Made by a program: the position numbers and the translations under genes. DNA of 64,000 bases from a virus, in IMG/VR virus record IMGVR_UViG_3300021471_000006, positions 32,001 through 96,000 of that record; one strand, 5' to 3'. The notes beneath the pieces are model-generated. The model saw nothing but the letters and a program-made list of their open reading frames with translations. It made no database searches and was not told the origin of the DNA. Below are positions 14,267 to 54,501 of the stretch, one piece after another. Numbering within the stretch: the first letter of the stretch is position 1; each line of letters begins with the position of its first letter.

Positions 14267-14624
14267 TTCGTTATTCTAGAGCAGGCATCCCATATGGGCA
14301 GTATGAGAAAGCAGAGAAAAAATATATTGAGAAACCAAATTCGGTGGGCTGGACTAATATTCTTTTAGTTGGGCTCTTAGCTCTTGTAATATTGTTGTAT
14401 CTGTTAACATAGTCAATAAGCTGCAGCTCGTAACACCAAAAAACTGGCTTTTTTCTCCCGAACCCGGGAAACTAGAAGTATCTTCTATTTAGATTAACTT
14501 CTCATAACAAAAATGGTTCTCCAGGAGTACCGAGGACGGCGAAATGGCTAAAACTTCTCTCCAGCTACACACGGCGTACTATTCTTTATACGCCATAAAG
14601 CAGAATGACGCCACTTCAAGCAAG

Positions 14625-14757
14625 ACTGTTACTACTATGTAGTGGTTGCGGCGGAGTCGCCATTATCTCGACAATTATCTGTAAAATCTCGTGTCGCCAT
14701 TTTATCGACACTCTAAAAACTGTTACTACTAATAAGTAATAAACTACTGTTACTACT
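14625..14757 (+). repeat. three direct repeats ACTGTTACTACT
   Basis: Exact copies at 14625, 14719 and 14746 in non-coding DNA. Confidence 0.85.
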
Positions 14758-14892
14758 GCCTAGTGAAACAAGCTTCTCTTTATAAATCTTTTGGTTTTAA
14801 ACGTCTTTTTTTGTCTTTACTTCCTAGTAGTAAAAAGTGCTTTTTCTCGTCTTAAAAAACCGTTTCACTATTAATAAGTAACAACCCAAAAA

Positions 14893-14908
14893 CAAAACAT
14901 TTAAATAC
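14893..14908 (+). promoter_or_regulatory. archaeal BRE-TATA promoter (probably leaderless transcript)
   Basis: AAAACATTTAAATA about 22 nt before ATG 14930. Confidence 0.7.
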
Positions 14909-52900: not shown

Positions 52901-52946
52901 GTTTTGTGATAGTACAACTTGTGAAATTGAGGTGGAATTAACATGA
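49938..52946 (+). CDS. nrdJ: class II (B12-dependent, monomeric RTPR-type) ribonucleotide reductase with an intein
   Basis: PPGRGLW, LNNC, VVAGNVRR, NPCLEQ..EL C|CLVE, KPSGTVS, WADNQVS, C-terminal CDSTTC. Confidence 0.95.
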   Translation: MINGDNGVDKIFFKLKDSFIENYKDKQPEWGYGGLGYTVYKRTYARRLNGSTEEFWQTLRRVVEGVFTIQKRHCIRNLVPWSELKAQNSAQKMFKLMWEFKFLPPGRGLWMMGTDYVYKRGGMSLNNCGFVSTQNITTNFAEPFCFLMDACMLGVGVGADTKGAGKMTVREPKISNEAFLIPDTREGWVEALRKVLNAFSGEGELPASFDSSLIRPYGEPINGFGGTASGPGPLLEMLADVEKVLRKRIGEKITSTDIVDIFNLIGRCVVAGNVRRTAEIMFGEQDDEEFLNLKNPEMFKTELLHHRWASNNSIFAKVGMDYSKVAELTAKNGEPGYEWLDNARAFSRMGKEPDNKDYRAGGGNPCLEQTLEPYELCCVTGDTRIQTRSGLPKIKDVVGKTVEVWNGVCWSKVKPFKAGKNKKILRVYISDGSYLDCDKKHEFLVRERTKRRYVKKYAKNLKPGDTLPEYSLEPDMGGKHVENAYEYGLFAGDGCVDKNNPILCIGGDKNKLKNKIKGKWYKPRTNEYNKPMYRVSMKNILDLEMCRQLRQKELPEDIFSWDSNSIMEFIAGYIDSDGSVGKYGNTHNYRIFGLEQKMRDLQILCRRIGINHATVNLMSKKGTKTNFGTRNEDLWFLYIPTYECAGIPTRLKIATKFGSGLKNNNAHVNGRQISYKRRQKIVGITEKLQREDTYCFTEPMYNMGVFGNVLTFQCLVETFPVKHNTLEEWIETLKYAYLYAKTVTLIPTHNKLTNAVMLRNRRIGCSISGITQAFKKFGRRHFFEKIDEGYKRIQDWDKTFSDWMCIPRSIKMTSIKPSGTVSLLPGVTPGIHYPISEYYIRNVRFMKGSKLLEKLEKAGYLVEKDKYTDNTYVVSFPIKEEYFERSVNDVSMWEQLENVAQIQEHWADNQVSVTVSFKDYEAKDIKYALELYETRLKGVSFLPIKDHGYEQAPYIPITEKEFKNLRRKIKDKNLLGKITNSIHEIDDKFCDSTTCEIEVELT
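51069..52076 (+). mobile_element. RNR intein with LAGLIDADG endonuclease (336 aa, Gln-terminated)
   Basis: CVTGDTRI...GLFAGDG...GYIDSDG...DTYCFTEP...LTFQ followed by Cys. Confidence 0.9.
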
Positions 52947-53007
52947 TATACTTTGAACTTCAAGAAGATGGAAGTGCATCTTTCGAATATACAATATTTA
53001 TAGAAGA

Positions 53008-54501
53008 ATGAAAATAAACAACTATGAAGAGTTTCAGAGAAAGTCTTATCATTTTAAGATAAACAAGAGTTTCAATACTAGAACTGAACTCTCTCCAAGA
53101 ATTCTAGAGATATCTGAAGCCTTTGGATTGGGCGTCAGCGAGTTAAAAAAATTTTCAGTGTTTGAAGATTTCTATATTGGCTTTAATAAAGGTGAAATTA
53201 TTTATATTACTGGAGATTCTGGAGGCGGTAAGAGTATACTGCTTAAGGAACTAAACAAGAGACTTATGATGGAAGGGAGTAGAATTTTTCTAAGTTCTAT
53301 AATTCCTAATCCAGAAGATGTTATAGTAGAGTCAATAGGAAAGACTACTGAAGAGGCAGTCAGATTACTTTCTGTAATGGGACTTAATGATGCATTTATC
53401 TTTCTTAGAAAATATAAAGAACTTAGTGATGGTCAAAAATACAGATATAGGCTTGCTAAGATGTTAGAAACTGGCATGGACTTCTATTTCATCGATGAAT
53501 TTTGTGCTAAACTAGACCGCATAACTGCCAAAGTAATAGCATACAACTTACAGAAAGTTGTCAGGCGAACCGGCGTCACTCTGTTTATCGCTACTACTCA
53601 CTTGGATTTGATTACTGACCTAAATCCAGACATATTAGTTACAAAAAACTATATGGATAAAGTAAAGATTGAATATTTAACTCATGAAAAAAGAAAAATC
53701 AGCTTTTATAATAAAGTGAAAATCGAAAGAGGTGTTATAGATGACTATAAGAAACTGGCGAAATTTCATTACAAGAATCCCAGTACAGACTTCCCGTACT
53801 CGAGAATATATTGTGCAAGAATGGGAACGGAACTTGTTGGAACTTGCGTCTATAGTCCTCCCTTTTTACAAACAAAAGGAAGAACAATTAAATTTGATGG
53901 AAAATATAGCTTAATGAAGAAAGAAGTGGTAGCTGAAATCAATAAGCTTTTTATTAGATGTTCTAGAATAGTAATTTCTCCAAAGTTCAGAGGCTGTGGA
54001 CTTGGACAGAAATTGCTGCTTGAGTCTATGAAACTACAGAAAGATAAAAAATATGTAGAACTTATCAATATTATGGGAAAATATAATCCATTTGCGGACA
54101 GAGTCGGCATGGAGAAAATAGAGATTAGCGAGGAGACAGACGCACCCACAATTGCTCTGGATAAATGGTTATGTGAAAAAGGTCTTAAGACCGATGAAAT
54201 TCACAATCCAGTCTACTGGAGACAGTTTGTGGAATCTCTATCTCCTGCCGACAAAATCACTCTAACTAGAATGACTGGCAAAGTACTTCACCATCCTAAG
54301 ATAGGTCTATCGAGCAAGGAAGGCAAGAGGGCTGAAGTCGTTAGAAAAGAAAAGATTTATAAAGAGGTAGATTTTAATACGGTAAAAGAAGAAATTATAG
54401 ACTATGTTCCAAAACTATATTCGGGACATACTCTATATTATATCTGGATAAATCCAGATTACCAAGAGAAAAAAATGAAAACAATTGAAGAGTGGTTTTA
54501 A
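53008..54501 (+). CDS. ABC-type ATPase fused to a GNAT acetyltransferase
   Basis: GDSGGGKS, LSDGQKYR, FIDEF, TTH; RIVISPKFRGCGLG; PIP-like end MKTIEEWF. Confidence 0.88.
   Translation: MKINNYEEFQRKSYHFKINKSFNTRTELSPRILEISEAFGLGVSELKKFSVFEDFYIGFNKGEIIYITGDSGGGKSILLKELNKRLMMEGSRIFLSSIIPNPEDVIVESIGKTTEEAVRLLSVMGLNDAFIFLRKYKELSDGQKYRYRLAKMLETGMDFYFIDEFCAKLDRITAKVIAYNLQKVVRRTGVTLFIATTHLDLITDLNPDILVTKNYMDKVKIEYLTHEKRKISFYNKVKIERGVIDDYKKLAKFHYKNPSTDFPYSRIYCARMGTELVGTCVYSPPFLQTKGRTIKFDGKYSLMKKEVVAEINKLFIRCSRIVISPKFRGCGLGQKLLLESMKLQKDKKYVELINIMGKYNPFADRVGMEKIEISEETDAPTIALDKWLCEKGLKTDEIHNPVYWRQFVESLSPADKITLTRMTGKVLHHPKIGLSSKEGKRAEVVRKEKIYKEVDFNTVKEEIIDYVPKLYSGHTLYYIWINPDYQEKKMKTIEEWF

Follow-up and report, generated by a model that had tools for sequence, protein, structure and literature searches.

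The stretch of DNA analysed here, called the window throughout, comprises 64,000 bases from an uncultured archaeal tailed virus and corresponds to bases 32001–96000 of a 109,485-base virus contig from the IMG/VR database (IMGVR_UViG_3300021471_000006, designated G000; estimated to be 77% complete). It carries repeated copies of a GC-rich, asymmetric word, CAGARTGACGCCGG, within a genome with a GC content of 34%, whose purine-rich plus strand carries most genes. AAAANTTTATAAA boxes recur ahead of genes and, along with Shine–Dalgarno sequences, resemble archaeal BRE/TATA promoters, and the family B polymerase (PolB) has its nearest counterpart among named phage records in a Halorubrum tailed virus (28%). 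Also encoded are a terminase large subunit with inteins, a ribonucleotide reductase with an intein, RadA, a small AEP primase and a PD-(D/E)XK/Dna2-like nuclease. In a control region at 13.5–21.2 kb both strands carry genes and T-run terminators are numerous; iterons (ACTGTTACTACT) and non-coding islands rich in GC are also found there. A long gene array runs rightward from the consensus promoter at 21613, and no plus-strand T-run of at least 7 occurs for 16 kb (21.2–37.3 kb). Genes, promoters and terminators are predictions; promoters were called by consensus match only.

The word was searched on both strands, allowing up to two mismatches, and compared with 100 dinucleotide shuffles. Thirteen copies were found in the window versus 0.14 expected (shuffle maximum 2), all within a 39-kb span (chance probability 1.5e-6), and the rest of the 109,485-base contig holds no copy at up to one mismatch. 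The 9-mers of the word head the genome-wide over-representation list and its 8-mers stand at or near the top, in agreement with an earlier reading of the letters alone (the sequence-only reading), by which such a GC-rich word was unlikely to recur by chance. The eleven copies listed by that reading were all recovered, each at its position and on its strand; its list was incomplete, 17978 and 26553 (both plus strand) being present as well. Its assignment of the copies at 16517, 22081, 33591 and 53570 to open reading frames (ORFs) holds, with 53570 lying antisense, and the two added copies are in ORFs too. The regular spacing of about 10 kb that it had described disappears, because inclusion of 26553 turns the gaps outside the cluster into 0.8, 4.5, 7.0, 9.1 and 10.9 kb; in related viruses, about one copy per 2 kb is found. 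The copies and the structured element bordered by one of them are as follows (window coordinates, strand, description).

14601–14614, plus: copy with two mismatches (CAGAATGACGCCAC), intergenic, adjoining the iteron array; 18.8 bits by weight matrix.
15964–15977, minus: reversed copy (CAGAGAGACGTCGG) in a GC-rich non-coding element, 20–30 nucleotides (nt) past a plus-strand T-run.
16517–16530, plus: sense copy in the GNAT-like gene 16115–16657, frame 0, read as QNDAC; 425 nt past the promoter at 16081.
16689–16702, minus: copy co-oriented with the minus-strand gene 16823–17110, 429 nt past the minus-strand promoter 17131 and after the T-run of that gene.
17189–17202, minus: copy with two mismatches between two minus-strand genes, 250 nt past the minus-strand promoter 17452 and 33 nt past a minus-strand T-run.
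17978–17991, plus: sense copy (CAGAGCAACGCCGG) in gene 17917–18171, stop-prone frame, with CAA in place of TGA and Arg-Arg written CGC CGG.
18218–18231, minus: exact copy in reversed orientation, at the 5' edge of the GC-rich element 18216–18336.
18216–18336, plus: GC-rich non-coding element of 120 nt, closed by an 11-bp stem.
18325–18334, plus: partial forward copy (CTGACGCCGG), pairing with the reversed copy at 18218 in the stem of this element.
21237–21250, plus: exact intergenic copy, 37 nt past the T-run 21192–21200, at the entrance of the long rightward gene array.
22081–22094, plus: exact sense copy in gene 21884–22291, 457 nt past the consensus promoter 21613; orthologous to G010 C2:30550 in a related virus.
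26553–26566, plus: sense copy (CAGAGTTACGCCGG) in the AEP primase gene 26315–26872, stop-prone frame, with TTA for TGA followed by CGC CGG.
33591–33604, plus: exact sense copy close to the 3' end of gene 33319–33654.
42674–42687, plus: intergenic copy (CAGAGTGACGTCGG), 124 nt past a promoter-like box at 42539.
53570–53583, minus: exact copy, 18 of 18 bases with the TTCG extension, antisense in the ABC-GNAT gene 53008–54501.

Several other features lie beside these copies. The iteron array at 14625–14890, upstream of the first control-region gene, has the unit ACTGTTACTACT(A) and is a candidate origin or main operator region; in the relative G010 (C2, about 35700–35990) the unit is TGTTATCACTNTTTAGTAGT with at least 7 copies, and in the relative L361 tandem units of 66–72 bp occupy the equivalent position. 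A second GC-rich word, GCCGAGGCGAGG, is exact at 16788–16799, 21217–21228 and 43128–43139 and has one mismatch at 15980, 16703 and 18232. Its copies are all on the plus strand and mostly 20–100 nt from a main-word copy, and that at 43128 is in gene 42824–43165; in relatives only near matches were obtained, at the level of shuffled sequence. Three copies of GATAGTTGCCCG (18332–18343, 18472–18482 and 18549–18560), one of them inverted, occupy a 600-nt non-coding stretch after the structured element. The product of gene 53008–54501 combines an ABC-ATPase-like protein with a GNAT acetyltransferase domain and is kept in relatives; both this gene and that of the smaller GNAT-like protein (16115–16657) contain a copy of the word.

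Scans of IMG/VR for the exact word returned chance matches in GC-rich contigs and one unrelated sequence in four contigs, and relatives were therefore sought through proteins. They were taken from a PolB alignment (35–57% identity), and early-region metagenome fragments from a primase alignment; phage records searched for near-identical DNA yielded no relatives, nor did a single-protein locus search. The word is kept across this range of PolB identity, in G010, G013, G008, L353, L361 and others, and more distant PolB relatives (about 30–34% identity) have no copies. G010, the closest near-complete relative, with a 65-kb contig collinear with the window, has four copies at up to one mismatch, all in gene sense; three more, reversed, lie in its control region, in a non-coding island rich in GC (the label Planctomycetia of its metagenome-assembled genome is probably a binning error). 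All five matches in G013 (PolB 35%) and all six in L353 are in sense, L361 has six in sense and one reversed in a non-coding repeat island, G008 (PolB 51%) carries a single exact copy in RadA, and several short metagenome contigs have one or two matches each. The early region is covered by only two near-complete genomes, G000 and G010; the contigs of five IMG/VR relatives, including G008, stop at its borders and have no equivalent of 14–41 kb, so that low counts there carry little weight. As an observation on assembly, the contigs of the relatives G005–G009 all end at the limits of the counterpart of 14–41/53 kb of the window, which suggests a control and early region hypervariable or repeat-rich enough to halt metagenome assembly.

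The family consensus, derived from 28 copies, reads CAGA-R-t-g-ACG-n-C-G-G, followed by (T/A)-T-(C)-R. It is asymmetric and non-palindromic, with a core of 14 bases, or 18 with the extension; AGA, ACG and the following C are invariant, and positions 6, 7 and 11 are free, 6 and 7 being the most variable. A weight matrix detected 58 matches in 615 kb of this virus and its relatives versus 1 after shuffling. Most sites stand at different places from genome to genome, with no more than two orthologous ones; the copy at 22081 has an orthologue in G010, and the primase-gene site at 26553 is also present in G010, L349, L348, L350 and L354; the intergenic copy at 21237 has a syntenic counterpart arrangement in L361 at 2848. 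To judge from these alignments, the presence of the word is kept and its places are not. Conservation in related viruses, put forward by the sequence-only reading as a check, was thus found in distant relatives, in-gene copies included. In the primase genes of L345, L359, L361 and L382 a second word-like site, CC AGA GTG ACG GCG GA, is seen at the conserved peptide PRVTAD, a likeness that may stem partly from coding alone.

Copies inside genes occupy all three reading frames, and in the stop-prone frame the TGA of the word is written TTA or CAA (26553, 17978, G010 25493 and L349). The Arg-Arg after the replaced TGA is spelled CGC CGG, codons that account for 2.6% and 1.6%, respectively, of the Arg codons here. 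In G008 the exact 14-mer coincides with the RadA loop LQSDAGY, for which four relatives have LQKDDTF, LQTDNSY or LQQDQTF, and at the antisense copy 53570 the ABC-GNAT protein reads RRTGVTLF, for which four orthologues have RKNNMAVF or similar. The gene 21884–22291 shares only 30% identity with its orthologue in G010, and the word plus flank at 22081, with 26 of 28 bases, is the sole significant nucleotide match between the control regions of G000 and G010. Since three frames are used, rare codons are chosen, TGA is avoided and amino acids are changed to hold the word, selection acts on the nucleotides and not on the peptide; a peptide motif (R-M/V-T-P) was ruled out by the copies in three frames and in non-coding DNA. 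These copies are a clear case of a DNA signal written into coding sequence by means of rare codons, stop avoidance and amino-acid replacement.

Orientation follows the genes: 48 of the 58 matches are co-oriented with local genes (P = 2e-7), as are 38 of the 44 in the relatives alone. In the control region of G000 the copies 16689 and 17189 are reversed and lie in or just after minus-strand genes with their own promoters and Shine–Dalgarno sites; since they flip with these genes, orientation is tied to transcription and not to one genome-wide direction. Most other reversed copies belong to control-region islands that are GC-rich and non-coding (15964 and 18218, three in G010 and two in L361), with a spacing of 44–54 bp among the three in G010 and 51 bp between the two in L361. 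Six of the 13 copies lie 124–473 nt downstream of a same-strand consensus promoter, compared with 1.8 under a uniform null (P = 0.005; jitter null P = 0.036), and with strands flipped only one copy (165 nt) is left in a promoter window of 80–600 nt. Intergenic copies tend to be located 20–115 nt past T-runs, e.g. 21237 and L361:2848. G000 and G010, the near-complete genomes, carry the word in the control and early-gene region only, with no copy in the structural region; it is missing from two thirds of the genome, a share that includes all sequence to the left of the putative origin.

Our tentatively favoured explanation, possible though short of an even chance, is by analogy: the word would form a network of asymmetric binding sites for a protein that controls elongation in early transcription units, in the manner of stoperators. 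The stoperators of Cluster A mycobacteriophages are 13-bp asymmetric sites that stop elongation in one orientation only (PMC6550527), and the solved repressor of one such phage, TipsytheTRex, is a two-domain protein that occupies its asymmetric 13-bp site as a monomer (PMC9283540). The word may likewise be the bipartite recognition site of a sequence-specific, probably virus-encoded protein, with the conserved blocks CAGA(R) and ACG-n-CGG on either side of the loose positions 6–7; such bipartite conservation (invariant AGA..ACG.C, variable 6, 7 and 11) matches the site of a two-headed protein. The sites would be sense-oriented in the transcription units of the control region and early array, usually a few hundred bases past a promoter or just past a terminator. 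Once made, the protein would bind them and block or limit the elongating host RNA polymerase in an orientation-dependent way, with the result that early transcription is shut down or insulated; the reversed copies in GC-rich non-coding elements of the control region would be the operator cluster of the same protein. Because the word is confined to the early region, early shut-off or insulation is more likely than prophage silencing.

If this were true, a DNA-bound protein could stop an archaeal RNA polymerase in a polar way. Very little is known, to our knowledge, about the timing of gene expression in large archaeal viruses. The word (14–18 bases) can be synthesized and could serve as bait, e.g. 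as a duplex with CAGAGTGACGCCGGTTCG, to fish the binder from a virus family known from metagenomes only; it is also a marker for recognising the early region of related contigs.

A number of observations weigh against a stoperator-like network. Ten of the 58 matches are reversed, among them the exact copy lying antisense in a gene (53570), and about half of the copies are in genes and not in short intergenic gaps. Consensus TATA/BRE boxes are free of copies, the shortest distance from a copy to an upstream box on its strand being 124 nt, and a classical operator is thus missing. Promoter calls are consensus matches only, and the early array lies entirely on one strand, so that outside the G000 control region the direction of transcription is inseparable from other left-to-right processes. 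Pfam and PHROGs gave no match of helix-turn-helix type among the about 40 proteins scanned, control-region products among them and many small ORFs lying outside the scan, and for the protein 18829–19590 a word-indexed search returned no homologue, its structure model being poor (predicted local distance difference test, pLDDT, 52.6). No Phage_integrase, Resolvase or ParB_N match was obtained in the contig (77% complete), and there is no sign of lysogeny. Finally, we know of no description of orientation-dependent roadblocking of archaeal RNA polymerase.

Much of the same evidence bears on other explanations. The word could act in RNA, as a single-stranded element of early transcripts for an RNA-binding protein or nuclease (stability, processing) or as the target of antisense RNAs from the reversed copies. 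The strong sense bias and the confinement to co-transcribed early units agree with this, the two most frequent variants (A/G at position 5, C/T at 11) would keep pairing with U and G, and of the GC-rich elements holding reversed copies one, 18216–18336, folds well on the plus strand with G–U pairs (z −3.6 and −3.0; minus strand weaker). The other GC-rich elements fold no better than shuffled sequence, the central positions 6–7 are the most variable, with frequent T-to-A changes, contrary to the needs of an RNA duplex, no shared hairpin context and no Rfam family match were found, the word is not enriched near translation starts (23% vs 22.5% within 50 nt), and the exact copy at 53570 is antisense; overall, we consider action in RNA unlikely. 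Quite unlikely, too, is that the copies are single-strand nick sites of a conserved HNH endonuclease, with the nick held on the non-template strand and transcription left unblocked; such nicks could serve as priming points for recombination-dependent replication that involves the viral RadA, or as marks on virion DNA of the kind seen in T5-type phages. The nuclease concerned is the following.

43155–43478, plus: HNH_3 + NUMOD3 endonuclease of 107 amino acids; candidate partner only.

I-HmuI-type HNH enzymes nick one strand at long asymmetric sites, co-orientation with transcription is expected if only non-template nicks are tolerated, and RadA and the PD-(D/E)XK/Dna2-like nuclease are encoded alongside. 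The HNH + NUMOD3 protein is more conserved than PolB in all relatives covering its position (77, 57, 58 and 62% identity vs 57, 35, 53 and 51%). Nothing ties it to the word, however, and no solved relative of it was found; HNH genes with unrelated roles are common in large viruses, nicks need neither early-region confinement nor promoter proximity, and the exact antisense copy 53570 would place a nick in the template strand. Taken together, an archaeal counterpart of stoperators, i.e. a polar stop of archaeal RNA polymerase by a bound protein, and strand-specific non-template nicks by this core nuclease come close to an even chance that one or the other applies. It is highly improbable that the word spreads itself or is a recombination linker, propagated by gene conversion or template switching and shuffling small, fast-changing early genes like PeSL-type cassettes. 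It does lie in a hypervariable early region where the assemblies of relatives break, its positions turn over between genomes, its copies are 'written' into genes, and GCCGAGGCGAGG, confined to G000, behaves similarly. Only 14–18 bases are common to the copies, though, with unrelated flanks and no longer element or target duplication visible; copies lie mid-gene and not at module borders, integrase and resolvase searches of the contig found no recombinase, and persistence of the same word across 35% PolB identity, with stop avoidance inside genes, speaks for selection on function. The sequence-only reading had proposed a binding site for a viral protein. A functional recognition site, probably protein-bound, is well supported, and the specific roles it named, i.e. 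segregation or organisation (parS, matS, ram), a Chi-like signal, a primase or restart site and packaging, fit poorly and are improbable. They draw on a GC-rich, dispersed and over-represented word clustered by an iteron-bearing, origin-like region near the terminase gene, on the AEP primase and RadA, the primase gene itself carrying a copy, and on the lagging-strand template of a rightward fork, where the plus-strand word would sit; in addition, the RacA ram site of Bacillus, TGACGCCGGCGTCA (PMC4914108), is identical to TGACGCCGG over 9 of its 14 bases. Against them stand the absence of the word from two thirds of the genome, its distribution being neither around an origin nor genome-wide, and an orientation that changes with that of the genes within the 4-kb control region and shows no replichore trend. 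Sites of the parS, matS and ram type are palindromic and orientation-free, whereas this one is asymmetric with a strong strand bias, and the contig has no ParB_N match (homologues of MatP and RacA were not searched for). Chi-like signals are 5–8 nt long, frequent genome-wide and replication-oriented, and a word of 14–18 nt with 13 confined copies is too long and sparse for these and also for a primase; for packaging, one pac or cos site would be enough. Primase or restart and recombination roles are conceivable but favoured by no finding here.

Several narrower candidates were set aside. A conserved hairpin or known RNA was dismissed for lack of a common fold, with mixed z-scores and no Rfam family, and an antisense-RNA target is disfavoured by a variable centre where a duplex would conserve it. 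A start codon with Shine–Dalgarno sequence (R = ATG/GTG) is contradicted by positions 6–7 being least conserved and by the missing enrichment near predicted starts; a RegA-like translational operator fails on the same grounds. Shufflon-type inversion sites were discarded, as neither integrase nor resolvase was found in the contig. A tRNA T-arm or att site was considered since the GGTTCR after many copies is reminiscent of a tRNA T-loop; the partner strand of a T-stem is lacking, however, and an integrase was not found. GAATACG, at first taken for a related word in relatives, was a false lead from Glu-Tyr codons.

Further features of the window were noted. Two adjacent tRNA genes lie in the early array at 36858–37024 (36858–36923 and 36951–37024), of which ARAGORN reports tRNA-Ala(UGC) only and Rfam both. 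Three proteins are interrupted by inteins with LAGLIDADG domains: a DegT-type aminotransferase (317–2602), the terminase large subunit (8990–13051, with apparently two Hint regions) and the ribonucleotide reductase (49938–52946); the PolB of some relatives also has inteins. The most over-represented 8-mer of the whole contig is AGGTGAGA, with 16 copies vs 2 expected, and is probably a preferred ribosome-binding context.

Among known systems, the ops/JUMPStart element read by RfaH is a GC-rich word of about 12 nt that acts in sense (non-template) only, in long operons downstream of promoters. The word shares with it the GC-rich composition, the sense orientation and the location in transcribed regions downstream of promoters, and differs in having many copies deep in operons and in a setting where plus-strand T-runs of at least 7 are already absent from 21.2–37.3 kb; no Spt5-NGN match, i.e. 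no NusG/Spt5 paralogue, was found in the contig, and a host factor is conceivable. In T5 and phiKMV, one-strand nicks occur at consensus words, that of phiKMV being CGACNNNNNCCTACTCCGG. Like these, the word is a long asymmetric consensus with few dispersed copies, mostly on one strand and ignoring gene borders, in a genome encoding an HNH nuclease; unlike them, its sites are regionally confined and follow the direction of transcription, and both the nicks and a part for the nuclease, unlinked to the word, are proposals here. The ram sites of Bacillus subtilis (TGACGCCGGCGTCA; PMC4914108) are likewise GC-rich 14-bp words dispersed in an AT-rich replicon and have the 9-base TGACGCCGG in common with the word. 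They are palindromic, dimer-bound, orientation-free and placed around oriC, whereas the present site is asymmetric and shares a half-site-like string only; the systems are unrelated and the shared TGACGCCGG is probably a coincidence. Halovirus HF2 has repeats of 58 bp (class I) and 29 bp (class II; PMC8707807), which resemble the word in being dispersed, conserved and tied to transcription units in an archaeal tailed virus; they are intergenic, AT-rich and promoter-bearing, in contrast to a GC-rich word without TATA box that has half of its copies in genes.

The stoperators of Cluster A phages (L5, Bxb1, TipsytheTRex) offer a partial fit, and we would place the word beside them as possibly working alike, with some doubt, and not file it as a member of their family. 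Differences are evident in number and distribution, with 20–30 sites on both arms in Cluster A and 13–14 here, within 39 kb of 109 kb in the control and early region, as well as in setting: half of the copies are intragenic and none touches a promoter, the polymerase of the host is archaeal, and repressor, integrase and parABS were not found, binding and roadblock being proposed by analogy. In common are asymmetric sites of about 13–14 bp, present in many copies, mostly co-oriented with transcription and for the most part outside promoters, a consensus that drifts among related viruses, and a bipartite conservation that fits a two-headed monomer.

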